From positions 207,192-271,191 of the IMG/VR virus record IMGVR_UViG_3300050821_002957: a stretch of 64,000 nt of DNA; one strand, written 5' to 3'. The notes beneath the pieces were generated by a model. It ran no database searches. It was not told the DNA's origin and was given only the letters and a program-made list of their open reading frames with translations. Numbering within the stretch: position 1 is the stretch's first letter; the number at the start of each line of letters is the position of its first letter. Positions 6,981 to 57,645 of this stretch are shown here, one piece after another. The position numbers and the translations under genes are program-made. This stretch comes from a virus.

Positions 6981-8063
6981 TTACTGCGCTGATGCCGTTT
7001 CTTCGGGAGCAGCTACCGAAACCACCTGATGACCATTCATTGCAGCTTCGCCGATAGCCGTCGCAGTGGATGCCAGATCCTTCTTGGATACGGTTTGCTT
7101 GACGGTTGCGCCGATGAAGGGCTTCCATTTGGTTTTGATCACGTCGGCACGCAACGCATCGAATGCGAGTAACATGGCACGACGAATGAAGATCGGACGA
7201 GTTTTGTCACGCTGGCCGGTTGCGAACGTCTCGACCAATTCCGACCGCAGAGCATCAACAGGATTGCCCTTGGGCAGCGAATTCTCCAACGGATTGAAGA
7301 AGGCTTCCATGAACAACATGCCCTTTTCACGGTCGATGTCGAACATCTTCAGGGCGGCGGCGGCGTAAATCGGAATGCGCTTCGTGCCCAGTTCGTCGTT
7401 CACGCTGCCGTGCGAGCGAAACAGAGTTGCGATGGTTTCGTAGACCGAATCGAAATACTCACGCTTGGTCTTGTACTCGTCGTTGATTTCGAGACGAGAC
7501 ATTGCCTTGTTGATGCTGCCCGGTTTGATGTTCTCTGGGAGCATGTAGTATTCGACCATCTCCCACTTGTGAGTGTCCACGTTTGCAAAATGGGCGAGGT
7601 TGGTCTTGGTGCGCTTTGCAACGCCCATGACGAGAAGATTGTCGATCAGAGCTTCGATGTTATCCACATGAATGCCGGTCAGCACTGTGGTTTCATAGCT
7701 CACTTCTGGATTGATCTCTGCTGCTTTCAGCACTGCGTTGCACCGATGTTGCAAATCGATGCCGTCTGCGGTGTCCGTAAACAACAGAGGTTCTCCAGTG
7801 TTGCGAAAATGTCCATTAAGCATCTGCCGTGCCATCGATTCGACCACCGACCAGTTGATCGGGCGATTCGTGACCTTGGGGTCCTTAAGGTTGAACTTCA
7901 GCAAAAATTCGGCAAGCTGCTTGTTTAGGCACACCGTGAACACTTTCACTTTGCTGTCTTTGCTGGATGCTTCGAGCGTCTTATTGAGAAGTGCCAGGGC
8001 TTTGCCTGACCCTTTCAACGTTTGGATCTGTTGATCGTCAATCGTTTGAAGATTGGTAGTCAT
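6981..8063 (-). CDS. ParB/Srx-fold protein with DGQHR-like motif (DGIDLQHR)
   Basis: 360 aa from ATG 8061-8063 (track ORF extends to GTG at 8192); motif ...EPLLFTDTADGIDLQHR resembles DGQHR/DndB-like ParB domain. Confidence 0.4.
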   Translation of the reverse strand: MTTNLQTIDDQQIQTLKGSGKALALLNKTLEASSKDSKVKVFTVCLNKQLAEFLLKFNLKDPKVTNRPINWSVVESMARQMLNGHFRNTGEPLLFTDTADGIDLQHRCNAVLKAAEINPEVSYETTVLTGIHVDNIEALIDNLLVMGVAKRTKTNLAHFANVDTHKWEMVEYYMLPENIKPGSINKAMSRLEINDEYKTKREYFDSVYETIATLFRSHGSVNDELGTKRIPIYAAAALKMFDIDREKGMLFMEAFFNPLENSLPKGNPVDALRSELVETFATGQRDKTRPIFIRRAMLLAFDALRADVIKTKWKPFIGATVKQTVSKKDLASTATAIGEAAMNGHQVVSVAAPEETASAQ

Positions 8064-8713
8064 AGAAGTCTTTCTTAGTTCTGAATTGAAAACGATTGGC
8101 TCAACACGCCGAGAATTTTTGACGTTTGTCCTTTCGTCTGCCTTCTCTTGTAGCAACGTTGATGCCAAACCTGTCTCACACACGAAAACCACGCTTTTTC
8201 AACATACGAAATTCTGTCTTCGCTGTTGTTTCACTTTTTGGATGCAAAATTTTCTGCAAAAGATGCACGAAACTTTGGTTGTGATGAAAAAACTGCAATT
8301 TTTGTATACCACCAGTGACGACATATGGACACTAGGTGACGGCCATTAGACATCATTGGCGCAGGTAACATATGTTAAATGGCGACACATGACCCATAAA
8401 GTAAAAGGGAGCAAAGTCTATGCGACTCGGCTCCCTGGACTACAAGCATTTGCGAACTATTCAATCAAGTATATAATGAGACCAGTGCTATTGCCTGTTG
8501 GTAATCATCCGCACACCCGGCAACTACCAAGTCCCCGTTGAAGTCGATGCGACGGACGTGAACATTTCTAGTTCTTTCGACCCGGCCCCGAAATGGTCAA
8601 CCGTGAGTTTCAGGTCTAGCACTCAACGTTCGCTCGTCACTAATGGCTGAGTACACTATTAATGTACCACCTGGAGTGATCCTTGTCAAACTTGGTACAT
8701 ACATATTTACGAG

Positions 8714-9225: not shown

Positions 9226-9264
9226 GATACATCTATTGACTTCGGTCGGCATTTTTGCTAAGAT
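9226..9264 (+). promoter_or_regulatory. promoter: GATACATCT-A-TTGACT / 17 nt / extended -10 TGcTAAGAT
   Basis: read directly; nearly identical to promoter at 27647. Confidence 0.5.
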
Positions 9265-9272
9265 GGACTCAT

Positions 9273-9917
9273 ATGAAACGTGAGATTGCCTACGAAGGAA
9301 TGAAAACGCCGTGGGGTAAAGCGCAAAGTGCTCAGGAAGTCATCACTGGCATGTACTTCGTCACCACCGCTGGTCATGGCGGCATGAAGCTCAGTATCAA
9401 GTTGAACAAACTGATCCCGGACTACATGCGGAACCAGGGTGGATGGTACGAAGAGGACATCGACTGGTGCATTCCTTACGTAATTCTGGCAACTCACGAT
9501 CTCTTGACCAATCCCAAGTTTGGTGAAGACGTAGACAAGGCTGTTGCCCTACTTCGGAATTGGAAGCCGATGATGTACGAGCGCTTTTTCGATGTCGTCC
9601 TCAAACCCGGCGAGTCCATGAAGAAGGACGAAATGACATGGCAGTCGTACAACGCCGACAAGTTGCAAGTGCTCGCCGCCTGGGGTTCCGGCCAAAATGT
9701 TCGTCTTTCCCCGCCAGCATACGGTGACGGTCCTCTTGTCGAATACGTAGTCAAGCCGGGTTTCGTTCTCGTAGTCGCTGCTGTCGGCGGTCGCACCAAT
9801 CACATCACAGAACACGAAGAGGCATATTATCTTGTGCCCGACGCCGAATATCAGGCTCATGGTCCTCATGGCTTCATCGTCGATCCAACCCATCATCAAA
9901 AGGTGAGTCATGTTTGA
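9273..9917 (+). CDS. hypothetical protein (leaderless ATG 9273 or SD-preceded ATG 9300)
   Basis: ORF to 9917. Confidence 0.5.
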   Translation: MKREIAYEGMKTPWGKAQSAQEVITGMYFVTTAGHGGMKLSIKLNKLIPDYMRNQGGWYEEDIDWCIPYVILATHDLLTNPKFGEDVDKAVALLRNWKPMMYERFFDVVLKPGESMKKDEMTWQSYNADKLQVLAAWGSGQNVRLSPPAYGDGPLVEYVVKPGFVLVVAAVGGRTNHITEHEEAYYLVPDAEYQAHGPHGFIVDPTHHQKVSHV

Positions 9918-11768: not shown

Positions 11769-11944
11769 AAAGAGGCCGAAAACCAAAGTTCACACAAGAA
11801 GAGATTGATCACATGAAAGAACTCTATCACCGCAAAGAAGGAACTCGGTGGGGCATTGGTGACATCGCTCGTCTGTATCGCACTACGTCGGCGACAGTGA
11901 ACCGGGCTATCGATGGAAAATTGCCTGCGAAAGACGCTGTATGA
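11765..11944 (+). CDS. small HTH DNA-binding protein
   Basis: 59 aa MKRGRKPKFTQEEIDHMKELYHRKEGTRWGIGDIARLYRTTSATVNRAI: basic N-term + helix-turn-helix pattern. Confidence 0.45.
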   Translation: MKRGRKPKFTQEEIDHMKELYHRKEGTRWGIGDIARLYRTTSATVNRAIDGKLPAKDAV

Positions 11945-12558
11945 TTCATCAGGACCAGATTTATCACATGTTCGCCGACACTCGAATGTTTTTCGGCATT
12001 CCTAATTTTTGGAATGTCGTGACGAATCTTCCATTCATTGTCGTTGCGATTTACGGTCTATGTCGTCTCAAAAAAATCAATGACGTGAACGAGATGACAA
12101 ACAAATACGTCATCCTGATCGCAACTCTGATGATTGGCCTCGGCTCCAGCTATTATCATTGGAACCCAAATGACAACACTCTGCTGTGGGATCGTCTTCC
12201 AATGGCTATCGTCTTCATGGGAATTGTTGCCGCCACTCTGAAGAGATTTTATGGTAGTTTGGTCTGCCTCGGAATTGGAAGTGTCTTGTGGTGGCACTTT
12301 ACCGGCGAGCTTCTGCCGTATGTCATTGTCCAATTTGGAGCCTTGCTGTTAGTGACCATATTCGACTGGAAACGTCTGTGGGCCGTGATTATGATGTACG
12401 CCATAGCAAAGGTACATGAACACTTCGACCATCAAATCTATCAAGCCTTTCCGCTCAGTGGTCACTCGATGAAACATCTCTTCGCTGCGGCTGCGATCCT
12501 GACGTACATAAATTTGACGATGGTAGCGAGAAAATATGACGATCTACGACACGAGTAA
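11941..12558 (+). CDS. polytopic membrane protein, ceramidase-like (CREST/PAQR-type) family
   Basis: 5-6 TM helices; YYHWNPNDNTLLWDRLPM and HEHFDHQ His clusters. Confidence 0.4.
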   Translation: MIHQDQIYHMFADTRMFFGIPNFWNVVTNLPFIVVAIYGLCRLKKINDVNEMTNKYVILIATLMIGLGSSYYHWNPNDNTLLWDRLPMAIVFMGIVAATLKRFYGSLVCLGIGSVLWWHFTGELLPYVIVQFGALLLVTIFDWKRLWAVIMMYAIAKVHEHFDHQIYQAFPLSGHSMKHLFAAAAILTYINLTMVARKYDDLRHE

Positions 12559-14503: not shown

Positions 14504-15016
14504 ATGAACGAACTTACAAAAAAAAGAGAAGAAGGAAAATTATATTCCGGTAAGATTCCGACCGATTACATTCCACTAATTTCGGACGAACGACTACAAG
14601 AACTTGCTCGTATCCGGCCACTCATTGTTCGCAACGGAAAACGGGTCTATGTGACGAATACAAGCCTCGATGACCTTAAAGGAATAGCCTTCACCTGGGC
14701 AGAAGGAAAGTCTGTCGGTAACGTTGCGAAAGACCTCGAATCGTTTCATACCATCATTACCTATCATACCTGGGCCTATTATGGTTTCTTCAAGCCGACA
14801 CAGGCCGAAGTGCTGGCAAAGCTCAATCAAGAATTCACCAACGAGGCTCTTCAAAACGTCGTGGCATACTCGACGCAGGGTCCTGAAACGTCAGACGACT
14901 TGAACAAAAATCCAGACGTGTTGAACGATGGATACCACGAAGCAGTCACGACTCTCTATCGACAAAAATTTCAGCCTTTACAACCGAAATTGATTTGTGC
15001 TAAAATTGACGCATGA
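14504..15016 (+). CDS. hypothetical protein
   Basis: 170-aa ORF. Confidence 0.45.
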   Translation: MNELTKKREEGKLYSGKIPTDYIPLISDERLQELARIRPLIVRNGKRVYVTNTSLDDLKGIAFTWAEGKSVGNVAKDLESFHTIITYHTWAYYGFFKPTQAEVLAKLNQEFTNEALQNVVAYSTQGPETSDDLNKNPDVLNDGYHEAVTTLYRQKFQPLQPKLICAKIDA

Positions 15017-15188
15017 CCGCTGCAAAACAAATTCGCACAATCACACCGCCAACTCATGAAGAAATCGCAGTTCTTGCCTATGAACTGTGGGAAATTCGTG
15101 GTTGCCCGGAAGGGTCCTCTGAAGAGGATTGGTTCTCAGCCGAACGCCAGTTGACCGAAACTGCGTCGTAACCAAAACAAAGGAAATT

Positions 15189-16046
15189 ATGGGACGTACT
15201 GTCAAGCGAGTGCCTCTGGATTTCGACTGGGAACTGAATGAGCCGTGGGAAGGGTTTTTGAATCCTCTCTACAAGGCTCGCAAATGTGAATGTGAACATG
15301 GCCTGTCCCCAGAAGGCGAATTCATGCATAAGCAATGGTATGGATACGTCCCATTTTTTCCGAAAAAACCATTCGGCCCGGATCATCCTGCCGTCGTTCG
15401 TTTCGCCCAAAGACAACTGACTAATTCGCCGGAATATTATGGAAAGGGTGACTCTGCTCTACGCCGGGAATGTCAGCGTCTTGCCGGTCTGTTCGACACT
15501 CGGTGGTGCCATCATTTGGACGCCGAAGACGTAAAGGCCCTGGTAGATGGAGGACGCCTCCGCAACTTCACCAGCAGCGCAGAAACGCCACCAGAAGGCA
15601 CTCTAGTAAAGTACCCGACACCAGATGCGGTCAACGAATGGAGCATTGGCGGTTTCGGACATGATGCTCTTAATTGTTACATGGTCATCGAAGCCAAATG
15701 CCTGCGGCTAGGTTACCCGTACCAATGTGCTTTGTGCAACGGTCATGCGGCAATTTGGGATAATCCAGAGGAAAAGGCAGCATACGAAGCCTGGGAACCG
15801 ACCGAACCGCCGACCGGCCCTGGATACCAATTATGGGAAACGGTTTCCGAAGGCTCGCCGATCTCTCCGGTCTTTGCAACCGAAGAAGATTTTACTCGAT
15901 ATTTGCTCCAGAGCGGTTATTCTCGTCGAGCCATCCGAAATTTCATCAAATCCGGCTGGGCACCTTCGGCGACGATTGTAGACGGCGAATTGAAGCCGAA
16001 CATTCACGCTGCCGAAGATTTTGGGCAACTGAGCATTCAAGCCTAA
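15189..16046 (+). CDS. hypothetical protein
   Basis: 285 aa from ATG 15189 with AAAGGAAA SD; GC-richer than neighbours. Confidence 0.5.
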   Translation: MGRTVKRVPLDFDWELNEPWEGFLNPLYKARKCECEHGLSPEGEFMHKQWYGYVPFFPKKPFGPDHPAVVRFAQRQLTNSPEYYGKGDSALRRECQRLAGLFDTRWCHHLDAEDVKALVDGGRLRNFTSSAETPPEGTLVKYPTPDAVNEWSIGGFGHDALNCYMVIEAKCLRLGYPYQCALCNGHAAIWDNPEEKAAYEAWEPTEPPTGPGYQLWETVSEGSPISPVFATEEDFTRYLLQSGYSRRAIRNFIKSGWAPSATIVDGELKPNIHAAEDFGQLSIQA

Positions 16047-16114
16047 ATTTCCAGACTTCCTAAATAGTATAGCCGACGCACGCCGAAACCCGTTAGAATA
16101 ACTTCCAATGGGGT

Positions 16115-16140
16115 CACGGCGAAGCCGTGCGCCGAAGGCG
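16115..16140. terminator. two adjacent GNA-loop hairpins (CACGGCgaaGCCGTG, CGCCgaaGGCG) in convergent intergenic region
   Basis: read directly; no U-tract, so may be RNA-stability hairpins rather than a terminator. Confidence 0.3.
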
Positions 16141-16702
16141 CAAGCGGTTGACACTTTTGGATATCGTTATTCTACTGGTGGAACCTCGATTTGATCTTTG
16201 TGGATGAGTGTAGGGAAGCTCAGATGTGGGAACTGGACGGCGATTGCGTTCGATGCCATCCGATTTTGAATTCCCGGCCAGACGTTCTGAACTCGTTCAT
16301 CCATCGCATCCAACGTCTCAAGTACAGTCCCCTTAGGAACAAAGTGACCGGCAATGTTGCAGCCAAACTTGAGAACAACAGTCTTCATTTTTAAAATCCA
16401 TCGACAAACACTGCTTGGATCTGCTGCCAGGAAAGCTCAGTCCATCTCCCTTCTTCTTCAATCCACATCCGTACATTTTCAAATCCCTCGTTGAATACTA
16501 CCGTTCTGTATTCTTCGGCGTGGCTGAAAGTAACGTCTGGGCGAGATGGCAATCGGAGCTTGTAGCGCAACATCGAGACTATTTACACGCTCATGCAATT
16601 CTTTTGGAACCTGAACTGTGATGTCAGATAGGATTATATCCAATCTTGCAATTATTTCGGATCTCGTCGGAACAGGATATTGCTGATTGACGTAAGTAAC
16701 AC

Positions 16703-16954
16703 TCATGTCAAATCGTGCATGAACCGAATCGCAGCGGCGGCGATCTGCATTGCTTCTTCTCGCATCAATTGAGGATTACGAACTTTCTTTTTCTTCTTGA
16801 CTTCATCCCATAGCTCATCGACTTCTTCGTACAGGATGCCCCAGCCTTCATGTGGAGAACTAAAGGGATCATTTTTACTCGCCACTCGACGGACTTCTGC
16901 ATCGACCAGCGCATTCATCTCGGCCAACTTCGTTTCGTTAAGCTCTCGTGCCAT
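16703..16954 (-). CDS. possible MazG-like all-alpha NTP pyrophosphohydrolase
   Basis: HEGWGILYEEVDELWDEV resembles EExGE/E..D metal-binding helix pair; weak. Confidence 0.3.
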   Translation of the reverse strand: MARELNETKLAEMNALVDAEVRRVASKNDPFSSPHEGWGILYEEVDELWDEVKKKKKVRNPQLMREEAMQIAAAAIRFMHDLT

Positions 16955-17531
16955 TATTTCTCCAGGAACTCATTGTGATTCGTTTGCCACATACTCCACA
17001 CTTCTGACAGCAAGGTCTCACATGCTTTCCTCCTGTTCTGTGACATGAACAGTGGCACGTCGCTGCATTTTCTCGATGATTGCACCCGGAACCTTGACTT
17101 CGACCTTCTTTTCTTTCTTCCAAAAACTCATCCATCCTATCCAGGCGCACGTAGCGTACTGCCCTTTGATTTCCCAACAATTCCCACTGTGCCAATAAAT
17201 CCGACAGACGTATTCTCCATCAGCGTCTTCTGTAAGAGTGACGCCAGCCACAGCTTCAACTTCCACACCATGTTTTGGAGAAAGTCGGAGGATCATGCAA
17301 ATGCGCTCTCGACTAACGTCATGATTCTGTCTGGAACCTTAACTACAATCTTAGACCGTTTTTGCGGAGTGTCAAATCGGTAAAGCGTCCCATCTGTATT
17401 CATCAACTTCCGTGTTTCCGAATCAAAAATCAATTTGTGAAATGATCCGTCAAATTTCTTTATCCCTGTTTCGTATAGCATTGCGTTGCTCCCGAACTTC
17501 AAAATAAGACATCACGAACATGTACTTCAAT

Positions 17532-18134
17532 TTATGATTCAGGCACAATGTCCACTGGACCGGCAGCAGAAGGAAGGGCGGGAATAGACTCTTTGAAGAG
17601 GATAGGTTGAGCTACTTCGTCATAAGGCATCGAAACGATAGAAGCAGCAAGTCTTTGGACACATTCTTTGAGCATCCTGTTGTGCTGCTCGACCGCTTCA
17701 TCCCATGTCGAACAACGCTCACAAGGTTCATAATCTTCTTCGCCACCAAAAACCATCGTCTCGAAAAGAATAGGCTCGTTGCTGTCGCCGAAGTTGTGAT
17801 CGAGAACCAAGAAAACCGTGCTGACGGTATAGGGACCAACCTTCGTAAAAGCAACCCTGCATTCTTCACGAGACGGCCAGAAGCAATCCAAGTCAAATTC
17901 GACCGGGACACGATTAATAAGCTGGTAGGTTTTCTTCATAAAATGCTGCCTTACCCGTTCGTCTTGTCGTCTCCAGCCTTCTGATTTGTAATAACACGCA
18001 TCTCGATTAAAGTCTGGTCGTTTTTGTGCAGCAACATAATCTTCCCAAGATTCGATATCAACCTCTGTCAGAAGGGAAGGACGAAACCAAAAATCAAAAT
18101 CCTGTGGAAGTACATGATAATACCTGATGATCAC
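17532..18134 (-). CDS. hypothetical protein
   Basis: 200-aa ORF. Confidence 0.45.
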   Translation of the reverse strand: MIIRYYHVLPQDFDFWFRPSLLTEVDIESWEDYVAAQKRPDFNRDACYYKSEGWRRQDERVRQHFMKKTYQLINRVPVEFDLDCFWPSREECRVAFTKVGPYTVSTVFLVLDHNFGDSNEPILFETMVFGGEEDYEPCERCSTWDEAVEQHNRMLKECVQRLAASIVSMPYDEVAQPILFKESIPALPSAAGPVDIVPES

Positions 18135-18502
18135 AACAGCTTCAAGGTTCCTGTGATTTTGTCAACCTCGTCGGCGTAATCCGGCCCAATTGCCAGACAC
18201 GTCTTCGTTGGGACACCACCAAATTCCGTATGGCCTGCGTCTGTGATCACATAGGCCGTCAAATTTGCTGCTCGTGCCTTGGCTTCGATCTCCAGCAATT
18301 GTGCTTCAGAATCGACACGAACACAGATTTTTGTCTGACCCTGAATCATCCATTTCGTCTCAATGGATCGGGGACCAGAATCACCCAAAACACAATCGAT
18401 CAAAAATGCAATCGAAGCGTGTGCTCCCTGTGCGACCATCTTGCCCTTTCGCATGTTCAGGTCGTTCCGCATTACGATTACTTGTTTGATCTCTTTGCTC
18501 AT
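18131..18502 (-). CDS. pth2: peptidyl-tRNA hydrolase, PTH2 family
   Basis: KQVIVMRNDLNMRKGKMVAQGAHAS...W..GQTKI.V...SE..L......A....L.AYVITDAGHTEF...TKTCLAIGP....VDKITGTLKLL colinear with archaeal/eukaryotic PTH2. Confidence 0.8.
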   Translation of the reverse strand: MSKEIKQVIVMRNDLNMRKGKMVAQGAHASIAFLIDCVLGDSGPRSIETKWMIQGQTKICVRVDSEAQLLEIEAKARAANLTAYVITDAGHTEFGGVPTKTCLAIGPDYADEVDKITGTLKLL

Positions 18503-19086
18503 CGTTCTATACCATCACAACCATTCGTATGTGTGTCACCGTGGGTTGAACCGCACGCACATGTCTTTAGTCTCTTGTTGTTTTGTCCCCTTCCATCCTT
18601 CCATTCTATCCCAAAAGGACTCTCTTCCCAAGCTGGCTGATGCTGCTTCACTAGGCGTTCGTATTCCTTGATGGGCAAGTAGACGCCAATAGGAGTTTTC
18701 TCTCGTCCTGACACCAGCAGCGTCGGACCCTTCCCCGCCCACTTCTTGAACTTCTCGACACTCTGCGCTGAGATGTGTTTCAGTTCCGACATTAAAGCTG
18801 TTTTCATTGCTTTCTCTTTTCTTAAGCCATTCAGTTTCGACATTATTATTGGAAATGATTCTTCGTATGCCATCAATAAAAAAGACGGCTGTGAACGTAC
18901 CATCTTCAAAGTAGTCGATGCCGTATTCAGTACAACAATAATCGGCGTAATATCCGATAGGTACAACCTCTTTACGTCCTCTGTCCAAATTGGATCTTTA
19001 TGAGCACAGAATGTCTCATAGACACGCCGGTCATTGATTACGCAAGACTCGTTAACACCGTTGTACGTTATCCAAGTGTCTGTCAT
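18499..19086 (-). CDS. hypothetical protein
   Basis: 195-aa ORF. Confidence 0.45.
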   Translation of the reverse strand: MTDTWITYNGVNESCVINDRRVYETFCAHKDPIWTEDVKRLYLSDITPIIVVLNTASTTLKMVRSQPSFLLMAYEESFPIIMSKLNGLRKEKAMKTALMSELKHISAQSVEKFKKWAGKGPTLLVSGREKTPIGVYLPIKEYERLVKQHQPAWEESPFGIEWKDGRGQNNKRLKTCACGSTHGDTHTNGCDGIER

Positions 19087-19937
19087 AACGTCGAGATGTC
19101 ATGTTCGGCAACCGCTTGATGCAATTCGTCTACGTTGATAACCGGAGGCGTCTGAATTGCCAGATCAGAAACTAGGGTCGCTCTTTTGCTGTCGGCGACG
19201 AGTTTTTTCATTTCTGCCTTGGCCTTTTCAATGGCTGCTTCTGGAATCTCTTCGGCAACGTCACCAAATTCGTCATTGGTCCATTTACTGTCGTTCGATA
19301 TCGGAGTCCCATTGACATCGACCAGTACCCATTCGGCGTGACCTTCTTCTGTTTCGATGCCGACATCGGTGCCCATGACAAACCATTCGATGCTGCTGGT
19401 GATCTCTTCCATCATCTTGACAACTTGCTTGATGGTGTTGATCATGTCTACATTGTCATCATCTGCGGTGGACCATGCACTGATCGAAACTGGTTCACGA
19501 TTGGGAATGTTGACAGTGACCTTGCCGTCCTCTTCGATGACGACCTTTACCTTTTCGATAGGGGTGTCTTCCATTTCGACACAAAAGTCGCAGGTACATT
19601 TTTCTTCTTCGTCAACCTGCTGTTGCTCGGCTTGGACAAAACTGCCGGGATCGATTCCTACGTCAAAATTTTCGTTTTGCTGCTCGCTCATAACTTTTTG
19701 CTCCTTCGCATGTGCTGCCTCACAACGACAGCAACAGAATGAGTTTTCCATCCGAACCTCTGCACACCGCTTACAATAACGAACGTCTGTACAACAGGTA
19801 TTCCCATCATTGTTTGGCGTCTTCAAAATTTGACAGACTGGACAGCTATCGTCACCACTACACAAGATGTAAGGCAAACCGTTCCTTTCCACGTCTTCTT
19901 TCCACTCGTCAAGTTCTAGTTCGCTTTCAAACCACAA
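19083..19937 (-). CDS. acidic protein with N-terminal multi-Cys Zn-finger cluster
   Basis: 284-aa ORF. Confidence 0.45.
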   Translation of the reverse strand: MWFESELELDEWKEDVERNGLPYILCSGDDSCPVCQILKTPNNDGNTCCTDVRYCKRCAEVRMENSFCCCRCEAAHAKEQKVMSEQQNENFDVGIDPGSFVQAEQQQVDEEEKCTCDFCVEMEDTPIEKVKVVIEEDGKVTVNIPNREPVSISAWSTADDDNVDMINTIKQVVKMMEEITSSIEWFVMGTDVGIETEEGHAEWVLVDVNGTPISNDSKWTNDEFGDVAEEIPEAAIEKAKAEMKKLVADSKRATLVSDLAIQTPPVINVDELHQAVAEHDISTL

Positions 19938-20259
19938 TCCGTCATAATTTGCGATATGAAAAATGACGCTCAGATTGCCTCCGCACCCTTTGGGACTTCC
20001 TTGACGACGGTAAATTTCAATGCGTTTCGTGGGACCTCGGCGATCACGTCACAAATGCGCTCATAGGCAAACTCCTGACTATCCGCCTTCACGTACAGTG
20101 TTGCCTTCTGTCCCTCGACTTTGTAGATTGCCATTTTTCAATTGTACCAGAATGTGTGTCGGAACTTCTACTGTCACTTCGACCAACGGAGGCTCGCCAA
20201 AAATACTTCGGAGTAACTCTTCTTTCCATCGCCATTGTAGCTCATCGAATAACTGCCTC

Positions 20260-20526
20260 TTAGTAGGTCGGGCGTCCATCAATTAACCAAATGACGTAAG
20301 GAATCACGAAAGTCCACATGAAGACTGCCATTGCACCAAAAACAAAACCGCCAGATTGAAAGGCGTATTCGATCATAATGCACGCCATAATGACAGCCAT
20401 TGCAATGTGACCTTCATAGCGTTTCTTTGTGTCGAAGAAATTTTTCCAAATTGAAATAATGTTCATTATAATGCTCCAATGTCCTCGCCGGGTTCTTCCA
20501 TGTGCTCTCGCATGAAACCGTTCCAA
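20260..20526 (-). CDS. small membrane protein
   Basis: 88 aa, 2 TM. Confidence 0.35.
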   Translation of the reverse strand: MERFHARAHGRTRRGHWSIIMNIISIWKNFFDTKKRYEGHIAMAVIMACIMIEYAFQSGGFVFGAMAVFMWTFVIPYVIWLIDGRPTY

Positions 20527-20678
20527 TATTGGATGTCGGCCCCACGAGTCGCACAGGATTCACAACCTGCCAGATGTGCCTTTACTGCTTCTTGTTCTCC
20601 GAGAGTCAGACGGCAGTTATGAAAGTCTAGCAACGTCTCGTCGCTCATGTGTTCATATGCTTGTTGTGCTGTGTTCAT
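20466..20678 (-). CDS. ZAS-like (anti-sigma-factor-type) zinc-finger protein
   Basis: 70 aa; H-x3-C-x2-C (AHLAGCESC) preceded by His, as in ChrR/RsrA N-domains. Confidence 0.35.
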   Translation of the reverse strand: MNTAQQAYEHMSDETLLDFHNCRLTLGEQEAVKAHLAGCESCATRGADIQYWNGFMREHMEEPGEDIGAL

Positions 20679-21301
20679 GATTTTTGTCTCAACTGAATTA
20701 TACGATAGTACGGTGCATCTTTAAAAAGACCGTGGATTGAATCAGGTTTTGACGGAGTGTACGGTGAAGATGCTCCATGTCGATTCTTGATTATGTATCG
20801 TTTACCGTCACAGATTGCAACGATAACTTCCGCTTTGCACAGATCGTTAAAATTTCTGATGTTTATGGGGACGTTGTAGTTTGTTGCTTCACAATTAGGC
20901 CAATGACGACCTAGGTTGAGATCGGAATGACAACTAGGACAAATGTCATCTTGAAGTCGCCGATCTAAAATTTTTTGATAAAAACGTTGAAAATGTGAAA
21001 TTAACCAAGCGGAATGAGGTTTGGGTCGCAAATATTCGATCCAATACGAGTACCATTCATCCCATGTTTCTTCTAAAAAGAATGCCCTATTGTCGAATTG
21101 TTCTCTAGCAATTCTTAGGACTTTTATCGCACCAACTACATCCCAGTCTTTTTCATCTGCGGTCGTCTTCTCCGTAGATGTCGTCAAGGGAATCAAAATC
21201 GCCATTTGGTTGTCCCCATCGACGCCAGGGATGACTGACCGGCAATTCGTCTTCAGTTTTTCTTGCTGCGTCTGTTGGATCTTGATATTGCTGTTCGTCA
21301 C
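20675..21301 (-). CDS. hypothetical protein
   Basis: 208-aa ORF. Confidence 0.45.
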   Translation of the reverse strand: MTNSNIKIQQTQQEKLKTNCRSVIPGVDGDNQMAILIPLTTSTEKTTADEKDWDVVGAIKVLRIAREQFDNRAFFLEETWDEWYSYWIEYLRPKPHSAWLISHFQRFYQKILDRRLQDDICPSCHSDLNLGRHWPNCEATNYNVPINIRNFNDLCKAEVIVAICDGKRYIIKNRHGASSPYTPSKPDSIHGLFKDAPYYRIIQLRQKS

Positions 21302-21639
21302 TACTGTTCTCCCTGATCATGTTTTTCTTCCTTTTTTAAAACGAAAATCTTACAGGAACAATTCTTGCAGGTAGGCTTGTGATCCTGTCGGGTATGTCCA
21401 CATGTACAGGGATCGTACTTGGTGCAAGAAACATACTGCATTACTTTTTCTTTGGTGTTTTTGCCGGGGTGCCGTATTCTTTCGTCCAGACTACAAGACC
21501 GTCTTGAAAGGTTTTGTATGGGCCAAGCGTATTGTGGTTTGCCGCTACGAAAAACCAGCCGGTTGGATATTGCGTAGCAGTCCAGATTCCATTTTGGAAG
21601 GAGCCGGATTTGAGGGTCTCCCAGCCTGCCGGATTCGAT

Positions 21640-21900
21640 TTATTGTTGTTGCTGGGCATCTTCTTCATCTTGGGTTTTGCTGAAGAGACTCTCTAATTCG
21701 GCTACCTCTTCGACTTGCTTCATTAGTTCGTCAAGTTCTGGAACATCCAATCCCAAAGCATAGACTAAGTTCTGATTCATTTGGTAAATCTGAACCAGAG
21801 CTTGCATCTGATACGGGTTCAAACCCATATGCTGCAATGAAAGAATGAAACAGCGCTGGGCTTTCAAGGAATCTGCAATATATGATTTCGGATTTTGCAT
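21640..21900 (-). CDS. hypothetical protein
   Basis: ATG 21898-21900 with AGGAAG SD. Confidence 0.4.
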   Translation of the reverse strand: MQNPKSYIADSLKAQRCFILSLQHMGLNPYQMQALVQIYQMNQNLVYALGLDVPELDELMKQVEEVAELESLFSKTQDEEDAQQQQ

Positions 21901-23188
21901 TACTTCCTGCACAACATGATCTCCTTATATTTACACGAATTGTCAATCTGTCAAGCGAGGGATCGACCTGACTTTGTACAACAGGGTTTGTTGGGTCTTT
22001 CGGCGTCGATGAGCGAAGCGAAAATGACCGACCCTCCCCTTTCCTTTACCGAAGCTCGCAGCCCGTCCGAGACGGCCTGCGCTTTCGTCCAGGTTTCTTC
22101 GACCAAGGTCAGTAGCCTCGGTTCGTTTTGCGGAGTTAATTCTACTATGATGATGCGATACGACATTTGAAATAGTGAATAATGTGCTCGGGGACCAAAA
22201 CGTTTATTACTACCGGAACAGGATCATAACCATCAGAAGGGACTCTACCATAGACCGTTCGGAACATGTCCATGATGTCTTTCAAATATCGTCTGGCAAG
22301 CTCTTCTCGCTCGTCATCGTCCATTTCGTCGAATTCAAAACTCAAAACATCAAACTCCGCTCGGCCTCTTCTTTCGCCTGTGCTTTCGTCTTCCAAAAAG
22401 TTCTGGGAAGGTTCTCGACTACACAACACCACGTACCATCATACGAATAGACTTTGGCAACTTCTTTTCCGAGACCATCGTAAAGTCTTTCCGTGTTCGA
22501 CCACCAATGAGCTTTTTCCCAACGTGCCGCAGCGAGAGTCGTCATTGTTTCATCCAAACCATTCGACGAAGATGTAGTTTGCTTCGTCGAGACCATATTT
22601 ATCTTGTAAGCCATACGATTCACTCTCTTCTCCGATACAGAACGTCTCCAGTTCTTCGTCAGACAGTTGGGCAAGCTGGGCTTCGGCAATCGCAAGTTCG
22701 TCCGGGCGCTCGGCAGTCTCGAATGAATGCTTCTGAGGCTCGTGGCGATTGATTGCGCCGCTGTCAAGTTGAATCATCAACCAGCCTTTGTACAACAGCG
22801 GATAGGTTTCTTTACTAATTGTCGTCGTCTTCATTTTGTCTTTCCGCTTTGGCGCAGCCTTTCAATTCGCCTTGATCCACCCAATGCTGCAATTCTTGGA
22901 TCAGCCACTTGACCTGTTCGAGATCAAGATGCATTCGAGTCGTAAGCAGAACGTCGTCAGAAATTGGAAAGGGAATCCAGCCGGTCGTCTCTGTAGTCTT
23001 GACGCCCAATCTCGCTGCATCGTGCGCCATGATCTGAGGATTTGCATCACGAGGACCAAGCCAGACTGCCGAAGTACCCGGCTGGTCGAAATCGGCAAGA
23101 CTCGACTGCTGTAATTCGCAGAGAACGCCGTAACGATCACTGAATTCAATTACATGAAATCCCCGACAAGTCTTCGTTCGTTTTATTT

Positions 23189-42133: not shown

Positions 42134-42472
42134 TCAACCACAGAGAGGAACTTTATTCTCTTCCTTTTCAACAACTTGAATCCACTTTCTCAGGTAGTAA
42201 CGAGCGTCGTATTTTGTGCTCGTTTCTGCTTGAACAAATGGCGTTGGTTTGCTTTCAAGAATGAGTGGCATCGGCGTGGCTTTCAACATTGCGAGTTTGA
42301 AACGAACGTCGGGCCGTCTATCGAATCGCACGATCATTTCAGGAGCGTATTGAATCGCTGTACCGCCCGGTGTGGATCGTTGTTTAAGAATTTCGATTTT
42401 GAGCGAGTCGTTCATTCTGCTCCAGCATGTACATTTCAAAATACACTGACGACGTGACATCGTTCTCCGCAC
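42134..42472 (-). CDS. hypothetical protein
   Basis: 112-aa ORF. Confidence 0.35.
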   Translation of the reverse strand: MRRTMSRRQCILKCTCWSRMNDSLKIEILKQRSTPGGTAIQYAPEMIVRFDRRPDVRFKLAMLKATPMPLILESKPTPFVQAETSTKYDARYYLRKWIQVVEKEENKVPLCG

Positions 42473-42992
42473 ACGCCAATGCGAGTTTGAAAAACTTTTC
42501 GTCAGTCTTCATGTACTCTTGAAGTTCTGTGATTGCTTGTGCTGCACTCTTAAAAAGAATGCCAATGCCGCCAGCTTCACGCCATGCTTTGATGTTCGCT
42601 TCAAAGTCGTCAATGAGGATGTCGCCGGTCTTTGCGTACTGAGCTTTTTCTTTTTTGTGTGCGACGATCTTTACGAGATCCGGTGTCCACATCAACTCTG
42701 GAAGTTCATTGTCAAGCCAGATGCGTTTGTGCTCATCACTCTTTTCAATGTGCGAAGACGCAGCAGAAAGAATGCCGGGTGTTGCGACTCGGCTGTATCG
42801 CACAAAATTGAACAGTGCTCGTGCGCCATCGACCCACGGAAGATCCCGAAAGAAATATGGATGATCGTTCAACATCGCCCACTTTTCTTCATTGGACCAC
42901 TTCATATTGTGATCCCAAGCCTTGCCGGTTCGACGAGTATAATCACCATCAAATTCGCACAACACGCCATCCATATCAAACCAGACTATCAT
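42384..42992 (-). CDS. 5'(3')-deoxyribonucleotidase-like HAD phosphatase
   Basis: motif I FDMDGVLCEF at N-terminus, GDILIDD near residue 135. Confidence 0.6.
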   Translation of the reverse strand: MIVWFDMDGVLCEFDGDYTRRTGKAWDHNMKWSNEEKWAMLNDHPYFFRDLPWVDGARALFNFVRYSRVATPGILSAASSHIEKSDEHKRIWLDNELPELMWTPDLVKIVAHKKEKAQYAKTGDILIDDFEANIKAWREAGGIGILFKSAAQAITELQEYMKTDEKFFKLALACAENDVTSSVYFEMYMLEQNERLAQNRNS

Positions 42993-44313: not shown

Positions 44314-44389
44314 TGGTAGACCCGGTAGGATTCGCACCTACGACCTCATCGATGTCAACGATGCGCTCTAACTACTGAGCTACGGGTCT
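44314..44389 (-). tRNA. tRNA-Val (anticodon GAC), CCA encoded
   Basis: manual cloverleaf: acceptor AGACCCG/CGGGTCT, D stem GCTC/GAGC, anticodon stem CATCG/CGATG loop TTGACAT, T stem GTAGG/CCTAC; D-loop lacks GG, T-loop TGCGAAT. Confidence 0.8.
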
Positions 44390-47352: not shown

Positions 47353-48108
47353 TCATGATCCATTGCAATTTTCACAGTTGACCGCTGGAATAGGATACTC
47401 GCCGCAGACGCACAAACGCTCTCTACGCTGTTCAAATGCTTCCTGAAGGTTCGGAGTGCCTGGAAGCGCCGCAAGCTCTTGGAACGCTTCTCTTACGTTT
47501 TTTATCACGTCCGAATTTTGTGTCCCTTCTTGAATGTGCTTGTGCAGCAGTTCGGTCGGCTGATAGTTGTGCAAAAAATGCCACAGTTCCATTGCACCCG
47601 ACATCAGAGCCAGATCACGATAGAAATGTGGAGCCTGCTTGAAACGGTTCGCCTTCTTGCTTCCCTTTTCGTCGGGATCGCCACCAAGCGCACGATAAGC
47701 TGTGTCGTAGTCGGCCATGACACCATCAAGATCGACATAGACAACACCAGTCGTTTTGGACCAGTCGATTTCTTTTAATTTACGGATGCAGCTTTCGGCG
47801 TCTTTGTAGATGATTGCGATTCCCCCGGCATTGATCCACTCAGAGCAATTCTTGGTGTTGTCGTCGATCAGCACATCACCCTTTTTGCAGAGCTTTTGTT
47901 TGTCCTGAGGATAGGCGACGACATGAACCTTCGGCCCTGTCATGTGCAGATGCAGGGCGACCCACTCGATTTTGTCATCGTAGCTGGTCTTTAGGTAATT
48001 CGATTTTGCGCTTAAGATTCTGATGTCTAGCATACCAGTATCTATCGTAGCATACATAGCACTGTCAGCACAACATACACCAATGAAGAAACGTGATGCC
48101 ATCCTCAA
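47353..48108 (-). CDS. circularly permuted deoxyribonucleotidase-like HAD paralog with C-terminal Zn finger
   Basis: N-half aligns to residues ~70-160 of 42384-42992 (KGDVLIDD...AGGIAIIY), C-half to residues ~1-70 (VYVDLDGVMADYD...FYRDL). Confidence 0.5.
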   Translation of the reverse strand: MRMASRFFIGVCCADSAMYATIDTGMLDIRILSAKSNYLKTSYDDKIEWVALHLHMTGPKVHVVAYPQDKQKLCKKGDVLIDDNTKNCSEWINAGGIAIIYKDAESCIRKLKEIDWSKTTGVVYVDLDGVMADYDTAYRALGGDPDEKGSKKANRFKQAPHFYRDLALMSGAMELWHFLHNYQPTELLHKHIQEGTQNSDVIKNVREAFQELAALPGTPNLQEAFEQRRERLCVCGEYPIPAVNCENCNGS

Positions 48109-52581: not shown

Positions 52582-54135
52582 CTACTTCAGAACGTGGAAA
52601 GGATTGTGGTGTGGTTGTTCGCCGCCCGGTTTCGGATGATTAATGCGAATGATACCGTCAGGATCTACCTTGTTTGCGAATTTACCAGCAGCATCGTTGG
52701 TTACGCCTTTGAGACGAAGACCCGAAACGACTCCGCTGTGTTCATCATGGCCGTGACCGTTGGTGTGCTTGATGCCCAATTGTTGATGACGGTCGAATGT
52801 ATTATCGTCTTCGTCACCGTTTGCAATTGGATAACGATGGCCGCTCGATACATCTTCTACGTGTGTCGGATGAGGAGTATCCTTACCACGGTGGTGAACC
52901 ATTGCGACGACGTGACCATTCTTCAATGCATGAACAACGTCTTTATCGTTGCTTTCGGAGTGGCCTGTACCAGTATGAGACAAACTCAAATGGTAATTTT
53001 CTGGTTTGTTCGGATTGTGAAGACGGCCCGGAATTTTGGTATAATCATAAAATTGCGAACCATGATGACGCTCGAAAAATTTCTTCGGCATCAAGTGTTC
53101 GTAAGGGATGTCAGACGTAACATTTAGACGCACACCGGATTGGTGAGGATTTGGCGTAACTTTGTCGATCTTTCCGCCATGCTCTTTAATGTGGGCTTGT
53201 GCTTCTTGTTTGGTGTTAAACTGGTGTTCGCCAACATGATGAGTCTTTACGTTCGCAGCTTCTTTTTCGTTGCGTGAAATTTCGTGGGACAACAAACGTG
53301 CGGCATGTTCAGGATGCTCATGGACGTAATGTGTACGCAGAACCTTTGCTCGTAATGCTGCTTCAGGATATTGACGATTTCCACCAGCAGTCAGGCCGAG
53401 ACAATTCTTGCGGCATTCACCAGACGCCTTCGGGCATAGATCGTGCTTGTATCCAGAGTGTGTGCTTGGAGCCATTGCGAGACCAACTGTCTTTACGCCA
53501 GCACCGCTGCTCTTACGAGTCTTGCCATTTTCACCCATCAAATTTGCTTGACCGTTCTTTGCGTGACCACCACGTTCGTGCATGAATTGACGGAAATGCT
53601 TTTGTGCTTCTTTGGCCTTTTGTTCGGTGACCTTTGGGTGTTCGCCTTCTGGAAATGCAGCATGGAAGCCTGCCTTCATATGCTGGAATGGATTGCCGCC
53701 TTGCTTGTCCAGCGCTTCACGACCCTTTGCCTGAATGTCTTTGACCGGAAATGCATCTTCCGTCATAGAACTTTTCTGCGATTTTCCTGGTTTGCCGGAA
53801 CGAGTCATGTTCATCCAGGGCGAAGACAGGTGATGCAAGAAGTTATGAACGATAGGATAGTCGAGGAGAGTCTTCTTGGTGCCTTTCTTTTCGATGAGTA
53901 TTTGCGGCTGTTCGTACAGAAATTCGATCTCTGCTTTGTCAAGTTCAAGAGTTTCATCAAGCAGGAGGGCAGCTTGGGTATCGAAAGATTCTACAACTTC
54001 TTTGGTTTCGATCTTTGCTTTGTACTCTTCTGCAAGCTCTTTGTCCATTTTGATGATGTCGGTCAAAAGGTTCTTACCAAAGAACTTGGCGTAATTTTTT
54101 TCGGTTAGGTCGGCCATTATTATCCCTCGACCCAT
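52582..54135 (-). CDS. large histidine-rich protein (alternative ATG 54117 with GAGGG SD)
   Basis: 517 aa; His-rich C-terminal half; GCTAAATAT box overlaps first ATG. Confidence 0.5.
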   Translation of the reverse strand: MGRGIIMADLTEKNYAKFFGKNLLTDIIKMDKELAEEYKAKIETKEVVESFDTQAALLLDETLELDKAEIEFLYEQPQILIEKKGTKKTLLDYPIVHNFLHHLSSPWMNMTRSGKPGKSQKSSMTEDAFPVKDIQAKGREALDKQGGNPFQHMKAGFHAAFPEGEHPKVTEQKAKEAQKHFRQFMHERGGHAKNGQANLMGENGKTRKSSGAGVKTVGLAMAPSTHSGYKHDLCPKASGECRKNCLGLTAGGNRQYPEAALRAKVLRTHYVHEHPEHAARLLSHEISRNEKEAANVKTHHVGEHQFNTKQEAQAHIKEHGGKIDKVTPNPHQSGVRLNVTSDIPYEHLMPKKFFERHHGSQFYDYTKIPGRLHNPNKPENYHLSLSHTGTGHSESNDKDVVHALKNGHVVAMVHHRGKDTPHPTHVEDVSSGHRYPIANGDEDDNTFDRHQQLGIKHTNGHGHDEHSGVVSGLRLKGVTNDAAGKFANKVDPDGIIRINHPKPGGEQPHHNPFHVLK

Positions 54136-56601: not shown

Positions 56602-57645
56602 TTAGTCGTCAGACGGAGGAGGCCGAAGCTCCCCAGTCTGTTGTCCTGCACCTTCTTCTTCGGCGTCTGCTTCTTCGGTCATAAAACCAGAAGCCTTCTT
56701 GCCATATCCACTTTCAAACGTCTTCGGTTTCTCGGACATCTTTCTGAGACGTTTAAGAACAATCGGATAGGACTGATCAAGACAGAAAGATGCAGCAACC
56801 AATTCACGCAAGTGGGCAATGCTGAAATCCTGTGTGTCCTTTGTCCAACGAGCCAAAGTTTCTTCGTTAAGACCTTCGGTCGTGCTGCCGTCTTCATTCT
56901 TTGTAGTCGTTGCAAATTTCAAGTAAGCCTTGCGAGCAACTGCCGAGGGCATTCCAACATAAATGCGTTCGTCAAAACGTGACGGTCTATTGACGATACG
57001 TGCGCCCAGTTTATCGGGGTAGTTTGTGGTAGCCAAGTATACTACATTGGCGATTTGGTTTTCACCGTCCAGCATCGAAAGGATGGCGTGCTCACCATGC
57101 TTGTCAATGATTTCGTCGATATCTTCCAAAACCACAATGATCGGCCTGTCTGGTTCCATCCCACGTACTCTCTGGAGCATATGAGACAGTAAATCTGGAT
57201 GACCGCACAGGAGAACAATACCATTCAAGCTGATCAATTCTTTCATGAGCAGGTTGATTGTTACGCTCTTTCCTGAACCCGGAGGACCCCACAGCAACAC
57301 ACCACGTTTATAGACCAGACCAAATTGATTGTAACGTTCCTGACTCTGCCAAAATTTCTTCATACCAGCAAGAACTTTTACGTTAGCAGTTTCGGGAAGC
57401 TCAACAATGTTGTCTGAGATGACGGTCTGTAACTGAAGGTACGGACCCATGTCGTCTTGATCAATTTTGTAAACACCTGGATGAAGATGCGGAATGGTTT
57501 TTGCAGCCGCACGAAACTTGCCGTTCGTGCCGACTTGCCATTGCGAATAGTCCATATCAGTGTCGGTTTTCTGACTGATTTTTGACATTCTTTTTGCTAT
57601 CGATGGTACGGGACTTTCGTCCTCGTCTTCGTCGTGATCATACAT
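56602..57645 (-). CDS. AAA+ ATPase (classical AAA clade)
   Basis: Walker A GPPGSGKS, Walker B IIVVLEDIDE, sensor/Arg finger NRPSRFDERIY; acidic tails. Confidence 0.8.
   Translation of the reverse strand: MYDHDEDEDESPVPSIAKRMSKISQKTDTDMDYSQWQVGTNGKFRAAAKTIPHLHPGVYKIDQDDMGPYLQLQTVISDNIVELPETANVKVLAGMKKFWQSQERYNQFGLVYKRGVLLWGPPGSGKSVTINLLMKELISLNGIVLLCGHPDLLSHMLQRVRGMEPDRPIIVVLEDIDEIIDKHGEHAILSMLDGENQIANVVYLATTNYPDKLGARIVNRPSRFDERIYVGMPSAVARKAYLKFATTTKNEDGSTTEGLNEETLARWTKDTQDFSIAHLRELVAASFCLDQSYPIVLKRLRKMSEKPKTFESGYGKKASGFMTEEADAEEEGAGQQTGELRPPPSDD

Follow-up and report, generated by a model that had tools for sequence, protein, structure and literature searches.

Peptidyl-tRNA hydrolases of the PTH2 family have been described across jumbo phage groups by Iyer et al. 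2021 (PMC7824862), where they were assigned to ribosome rescue and tRNA recycling, and a further report (PMC5966550) describes their occurrence in phages together with an association between PTH2 and tRNA genes in cluster C mycobacteriophages. No experimental test of any phage PTH2 was found in the literature searched. The bacterial enzyme Pth1, represented by Escherichia coli Pth, presumably carries out the same reaction on the same substrates (PMC4929431), but it is not a homologue of PTH2: it comprises ~190 aa, uses a His/Asp/Asn active site and is unrelated in both sequence and fold. Here, we analysed a PTH2 gene located in a 64,000-nucleotide stretch of viral DNA, the whole of which is referred to as the window. 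Its product is best explained as a competent type-2 peptidyl-tRNA hydrolase for translation support in a jumbo phage, encoded by a gene of mixed bacterial and phage lineage, and we assign this reading a rough probability of 0.8.

Profile searches with the 123-aa product, which reads MSKEIKQVIVMRNDLNMRKGKMVAQGAHAS...ITDAGHTEF...LKLL, revealed a match to Pfam family PF01981 (PTH2) with an E-value of 1.1e-35 and 122.8 bits (gathering cut-off 23), spanning profile positions 1-115 of 115. The protein scored 114.7 bits against the NCBIfam equivalog TIGR00283, above the cut-off of 82, and 124.6 bits against NF003314, 1.4 below the cut-off of 126, and it also matched PHROG 1866, a family without a functional label. 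In addition, a sequence search returned seven distinct PDB sequences, namely six Pth2/Bit1 chains and Ta0108 (1rlk), with M. jannaschii Pth2 (2zv3) as the best solved structure (E 7.5e-28) and the E-values of the Pth2 chains extending from there to 1e-13. The motifs GK..AQ..HA and DAG.T, named in a previous sequence-only reading that had proposed a Pth2 homologue at this locus, are present as GKMVAQGAHA and DAGHT, and that proposal is confirmed by the profile scores as well as by the fold match described below. The gene thus encodes a real, intact and full-length PTH2 domain, and the match lies far beyond chance. Two plus-strand ORFs overlapping the gene (18230-18640 and 18363-18671) are without support and were dismissed as antisense shadows. 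The coordinates of the gene and of the other features of the window are compiled in Table 1.

Table 1. Positions of the PTH2 gene, its immediate neighbours and further annotated features within the window.
Feature	Position	Strand	Remarks
PTH2-family peptidyl-tRNA hydrolase gene	18131..18502	minus	ATG start, 123 aa, stop included; single catalytic domain without extensions
Upstream ORF, 195 aa	18499..19086	minus	TGA stop overlaps PTH2 ATG (ATGA); same JGI/Logan gene call
Downstream ORF, 200 aa	17532..18134	minus	GTG start overlaps PTH2 stop (GTGA)
DUF7007 protein	9255-9917	plus	
Ceramidase-family (PF05875) membrane-type protein	11941-12558	plus	
DUF2934 mini-protein	15013-15171	plus	
NT5C-type 5'(3')-deoxyribonucleotidase gene, first of two separate genes	42384-42992	minus	PHROG 2643
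NT5C-type 5'(3')-deoxyribonucleotidase gene, second of two separate genes	47353-48108	minus	PHROG 2643
tRNA-Val (GAC)	44314-44389	minus	ARAGORN; Rfam RF00005, 69.3 bits; only tRNA in the window
Protein with mycobacteriophage GP88 domain	52582-54135	minus	517 aa
AAA ATPase	56602-57645	minus	347 aa; PHROG 7485

An AlphaFold2 model of the product, computed from a 56-sequence alignment, reached a mean pLDDT of 95.5 and a pTM of 0.89 and predicted the compact alpha/beta fold of Pth2, in which a four-stranded sheet (residues 5-12, 58-63, 83-88 and 99-109) is combined with four helices. A Foldseek comparison of this model with the PDB yielded 14 matches with E ≤ 0.001, every one of them a Pth2, before the next match followed at an E-value of 0.3, and the S. 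solfataricus Pth2 chain 1xty_A aligned with TM-scores of 0.88/0.90 and an rmsd of 1.6 A. Residue conservation was analysed in an alignment of 142 sequences, comprising 36 GTDB bacterial genome loci, 2 bacterial metagenome contigs, 30 archaeal loci, 64 IMG/VR loci, five isolated phages, a sister phage of the one studied here, three PDB sequences and the window copy. The window protein keeps the consensus residue in all 12 invariant columns (G20, K21, Q25, H28, W51, K58, D88, G90, T92, T101, G106 and P107), although the constancy of KMVAQGAH and TDAGHTEF is in part a product of the sampling, because most loci were recruited with these two query-derived peptide patterns, which also biased the taxon sampling; this recruitment had no bearing on the Pfam profile or the PDB sequences. 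Residues K21, D88 and T92 of the window protein occupy the positions of K18, D86 and T90 in S. solfataricus Pth2, where K18 and D86 reportedly form the catalytic pair, and the presumed catalytic residues, on whose conservation the sequence-only reading had made its assignment depend, are therefore retained. The same conservation was observed in the 56-sequence alignment of database homologues.

Eukaryotic PTH2 proteins have moonlighting roles, and the fold could conceivably have been recruited by the phage for another substrate or for a non-catalytic role, for example protein-partner binding as in eukaryotic Pth2/Bit1. However, the window protein is a minimal domain without extra segments, keeps every invariant active-site column and shares 47% identity with M. 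jannaschii Pth2 2zv3 in the Foldseek alignment, and we regard such a recruitment as hardly credible.

Analysis of the surrounding replicon revealed a phage genome. Pfam identified Portal_T4, Phage_gp53 (baseplate wedge) and GP88 among the 77 window ORFs that encode at least 100 aa, the PHROG families found in the window include baseplate wedge, portal and endonuclease VII, and the genes are densely packed, many of them being short ORFans. The identical PTH2 protein is encoded on contigs of up to 405,631 bp, where it carries the JGI label 'PTH2 family peptidyl-tRNA hydrolase', and a Logan copy of the locus shows the same gene calls as the window. A megablast search with positions 8000-30000 (22 kb) returned no nucleotide match among the INPHARED GenBank phage genomes. 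The phage genes, the 405,631-bp contig with the identical protein and the missing INPHARED match led to the conclusion that the window derives from an uncultivated jumbo phage, in agreement with the initial description of the gene as phage-encoded. Pfam additionally detected several auxiliary genes among the 77 ORFs, namely two NT5C genes, CoaE, NUDIX, a nucleoside deoxyribosyltransferase-like gene and an AAA ATPase. The presence of two NT5C genes together with CoaE (dephospho-CoA kinase), NUDIX and nucleoside 2-deoxyribosyltransferase-like genes in one window suggests an unusually rich repertoire for the remodelling of nucleotide metabolism. The PF05875, DUF7007 and DUF2934 genes are located a few kb from PTH2, and the latter two are also kept in the locus of the sister phage (L068).

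A tblastn search against 50,697 phage records revealed PTH2 homologues in 35 of them, with 31-59% identity and coverage of at least 80% of the query in each case, most being annotated as peptidyl-tRNA hydrolase. These records include the Mycobacterium phages Myrna (EU826466; gp36, 'putative peptidyl tRNA hydrolase'), Baka, Sandalphon, Phabba and WXIN, the Sinorhizobium phiM12 group, Agrobacterium Atu_ph07, Xanthomonas XacN1 and Xoo-sp13, Ralstonia RsoM2USA, Salicola SCTP-2 and four uncultured megaphages. In IMG/VR, a scan restricted to peptide patterns identified a PTH2 relative on 64 viral contigs, many of them 100-508 kb in length. No other protein in the databases exceeds 84% identity to the window protein, and the copies of isolated phages all remain below 60%. 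Given these counts and the two published accounts cited above, the earlier view of the gene as notable in a phage has to be withdrawn: phage PTH2 genes are already annotated and published, and the window gene is a further example. Its value as a discovery is accordingly small, as the identical protein is already public under its JGI PTH2 label, and PTH2 genes of large phages are present in GenBank and were reviewed in 2021.

The relationship of the window copy to cellular PTH2 proteins was examined by a GTDB scan, which yielded 66 loci. The best of these were bacterial, with Terriglobia at 64% and Bryobacteraceae and other Acidobacteriota at 56-63% identity, followed by Myxococcota, Steroidobacteraceae, Bacteroidales, Mycolicibacterium and others, whereas archaeal copies showed 38-49% identity to the window protein. 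In a neighbour-joining (NJ) tree, archaeal and PDB sequences formed one group, and bacterial and phage sequences were interleaved in the remainder; there, the nearest sequence to the window copy was that of the sister phage (P0004, locus L068, 72% protein identity), and the pair adjoins Acidobacteriota sequences. Bootstrapping of a 95-taxon subset supported the archaeal split in 80/100 replicates, the pairing of the window copy with its sister phage in 69/100 and a sister group of purely Acidobacteriota-type sequences in 63/100, and since the trees were built on a short protein of 123 columns with modest bootstraps, biased sampling and without eukaryotic sequences, the donor inference is moderate and not firm. 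Within these bounds, the phylogeny that had been suggested for tracing the donor places the copy beside Acidobacteriota sequences and speaks against an archaeal source. The designation 'archaeal/eukaryotic-type' in the sequence-only reading thus holds as a family name but not for the nearest cellular kin of this particular copy, which are Acidobacteriota (57-64%) and not archaea.

We concluded with moderate confidence that the window copy is part of a PTH2 lineage in which bacteria and phages are mixed and whose closest cellular representatives come from Acidobacteriota. The gene is therefore best read as one exchanged between phages and bacteria and not taken directly from archaea or eukaryotes, and a direct archaeal or eukaryotic source was rejected, as bacterial and phage copies are closer in the GTDB scan and the NJ trees. 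Two homologues with 63-66% identity (P0034 and P0012) are located on bacterial contigs, P0034 on a contig of 373 kb among two-component, ABC-transporter and fatty-acid hydroxylase genes. Through the window copy and that of the sister phage, this lineage of jumbo phages is connected with Acidobacteriota-type bacteria, a hint at its host. In the NJ tree, the Mycolicibacterium PTH2 sequences (L021, L022 and L027) were also seen to group with that of Mycobacterium phage WXIN; these Mycolicibacterium copies may be prophage-borne rather than chromosomal.

The GC content of the window PTH2 gene is 48.7%, compared to 46.4% for the phage and 51-58% for the Acidobacteriota copies, and because this value is nearer to the phage, we consider the gene to be resident in the phage and not a fresh or very recent import. 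With Acidobacteriota as its nearest cellular relatives and a position among lineage-specific ORFans in a variable region, PTH2 could be viewed as a passenger, that is, a bacterial gene that was acquired from a host resembling Acidobacteriota and gives the phage no specific benefit. However, the 72%-identical sister phage keeps PTH2 in the same position and with all invariant residues, the GC content has converged on that of the phage, and the gene has been kept by independent phage lineages, as evident from the 35 GenBank records and 64 IMG/VR contigs. Taken together, these observations argue for selection on PTH2 and render carriage without benefit very improbable.

Regarding the function under selection, the genomic surroundings of PTH2 in other phages are informative. 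Among the 64 IMG/VR viral loci (L077-L140, with PTH2 at ~6001), a survey that covers the PTH2 flanks only and includes some near-duplicate loci, a tRNA or tmRNA gene was located within ~6 kb of PTH2 in 40 cases, and at least 27 loci carried four or more such genes. Many of the 64 PTH2 genes are situated inside arrays of 8-29 tRNAs, the number of nearby tRNA/tmRNA genes being 29 in L111, and a tmRNA was found close to PTH2 in six loci (L096, L102, L123-125 and L129). Likewise, the isolated phage RsoM2USA encodes six tRNAs no more than 3 kb from PTH2. Judged qualitatively, the frequency of 40/64 is far above the expectation from scattered placement in genomes of 100-500 kb, and the co-location supports a role of PTH2 in tRNA recycling and translation support. 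It points to a recurrent phage translation-maintenance cluster that is wider than the published case of the cluster C mycobacteriophages, and the survey thereby strengthens the case for phages assembling translation-maintenance modules. Transfer RNAs with a CUA anticodon, designated 'Pyl' by ARAGORN, were also noticed a few kb from PTH2 in L086 (1910-1983), L093 (1471-1546) and L129 (6800-6875), and might possibly represent amber-suppressor tRNAs as in stop-codon-recoding phages.

The placement of PTH2 in or adjacent to a tRNA array, as seen in these 40 loci and RsoM2USA, is not shared by the window gene. No tRNA was detected within 10 kb of PTH2 in the window or in the twin locus L001, and none was found beside PTH2 in the sister phage, where the available sequence of L068 covers less than 1 kb upstream and 8 kb downstream. 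As neither gene lies beside tRNAs, the tRNA-association argument is one by homology, drawn from other phages. The claim that a tRNA gene, an AAA+ ATPase and a 2H phosphoesterase belong to the same accessory region as PTH2 could not be upheld: the tRNA-Val gene lies 26 kb and the AAA ATPase, to which the AAA+ designation referred, 38 kb from PTH2, and no 2H phosphoesterase was found, neither in the Pfam scan of the 77 ORFs of at least 100 aa nor in the PHROG scan, nor when Pfam was run with relaxed settings on ten candidates, among them four ORFs with paired HxT/S motifs (identified by regex).

In the translation-support reading that we favour, the window PTH2 would supplement the host hydrolase, normally Pth1, during infection and would recycle tRNA from dropped-off peptidyl-tRNA, and the tRNA pool would in this way be kept free during translation of the hundreds of phage ORFs, most of which are short. 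We infer both the enzymatic activity of the window protein and its role in translation support; judged from sequence, tRNA rescue and counter-defence are each plausible as roles.

The immediate neighbourhood of PTH2 was analysed for candidate partner genes. PTH2 belongs to a series of minus-strand genes that are joined by overlaps of stop and start codons; the downstream 200-aa ORF is translationally coupled to PTH2, and the upstream 195-aa ORF is probably coupled as well. The upstream ORF showed no match in Pfam, PHROG or PADLOC and no tblastn match in the sister locus L068. The downstream protein contains a conserved core of ~90 aa common to 77 metagenomic homologues, all of them small hypothetical proteins, with the consensus VSTVFL.LDHNF...PILFETMVFG...R.sTW.EA..H and the invariant residues T106, F108, L123, F124, E125, R140, A147 and H151. 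Its AlphaFold2 model reached a pLDDT above 90 in the core, and Foldseek returned no fold match for it in the PDB, with the BFVD matches being solely uncharacterised Caudovirales proteins. Of the other PTH2-bearing loci, that of the sister phage (L068) is the only one in which this ORF accompanies PTH2.

Apart from PHROG families of unknown function, the PTH2 neighbours gave no match in Pfam, PADLOC or PHROG. A tblastn search with 12 neighbouring ORFs against 140 PTH2 loci produced matches only in the sister phage (L068/L069), and none of the 12 recurs beside PTH2 in the other 138 loci. Because the matches are confined to the sister phage, PTH2 has no family-wide partner gene, and the same search ruled out a conserved PTH2 operon. 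Within positions 15800-22600, promoter-like sites (14 vs 9.6 ± 2.9) and terminator-like sites (6 vs 6.7 ± 2.7) were no commoner than in shuffled sequences.

The same chemistry could alternatively have been selected to undo host attacks on charged tRNA, either through deacylation of N-acetyl-aminoacyl-tRNA made by GNAT-type toxins (TacT/AtaT-like) or through clearance of peptidyl-tRNA stubs after anticodon nucleases have cut tRNAs on the ribosome, as in an RNA-repair response. Bacterial Pth1 has been reported to reverse TacT-induced aminoacyl-tRNA acetylation (PMC9241777), and Iyer et al. 2021 (PMC7824862) assigned the PTH2 of jumbo phages to the repair of RNA after tRNAs have been cleaved. Members of the PTH2 family also occur in conflict loci, as seen for the 66%-identical bacterial copy P0012 (L070, ENA ERZ25039489 contig_94616; PTH2 at 8001-8375), which resides in a defence/mobile island with a divergently oriented Abi_alpha gene 64 bp away and with HEPN_RiboL-PSP, GmrSD_N, type I restriction genes, DUF927 and a transposase nearby. 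However, PADLOC gave no match for the window PTH2, its three neighbours or P0012, the neighbours in the phage are ORFans, and neither the vicinity of PTH2 nor the rest of the window yielded an RNA ligase, Pnkp, 2H phosphoesterase or any further repair gene. Furthermore, the literature searched contained no experimental report of a phage Pth acting against a defence system, and the strong association with tRNA arrays and tmRNA is just as compatible with general translation support. Nothing at the window locus speaks for counter-defence, which hence appears unlikely to us as the selected function. Quite doubtful, too, is the idea of a PTH2 dedicated to counter-defence, which would reverse tRNA-blocking immunity exerted by GNAT toxins or by abortive infection systems that cause peptidyl-tRNA to accumulate, and whose non-bacterial fold would evade inhibition or limits acting on Pth1; if this were true, the P0012 copy in its defence island would reflect the same arms race.

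Comparison with known systems places the window protein closest in structure to archaeal Pth2 (2zv3, 1xty, P. horikoshii 1wn2 and A. fulgidus 3erj/1rzw) and human PTRH2/Bit1 (1q7s). All share the same single-domain size of 115-123 aa, superimpose in Foldseek with TM-scores of 0.82-0.90, an rmsd of 1.6-2.8 A and 37-47% identity, and carry identical GK..AQ..HA and DAG.T motifs with K/D/T at the positions of K18/D86/T90 in S. solfataricus Pth2. In contrast to archaeal Pth2, the window copy is phage-encoded and falls on a bacterial/phage branch split from archaea in 80% of the NJ bootstraps, and unlike eukaryotic Pth2 it is devoid of a mitochondrial or N-terminal extension. The closest cellular relatives are the bacterial chromosomal PTH2 proteins of Acidobacteriota/Terriglobia/Bryobacteraceae, Myxococcota, Steroidobacteraceae, Bacteroidales and Mycolicibacterium, which agree in length and motifs but differ in their chromosomal or defence-island setting and in GC content (51-58% vs 48.7%). 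The PTH2 proteins of isolated phages (Myrna gp36, Baka gp70, Sandalphon gp80 and WXIN; phiM12/phiM7/phiN3; Atu_ph07; XacN1 and Xoo-sp13; RsoM2USA; SCTP-2) belong to the same PHROG 1866, show 39-59% identity across 95% or more of the length and are mostly encoded by large or jumbo genomes. Unlike in RsoM2USA, the cluster C mycobacteriophages and most of the IMG/VR relatives, the window PTH2 is not located beside tRNA genes.
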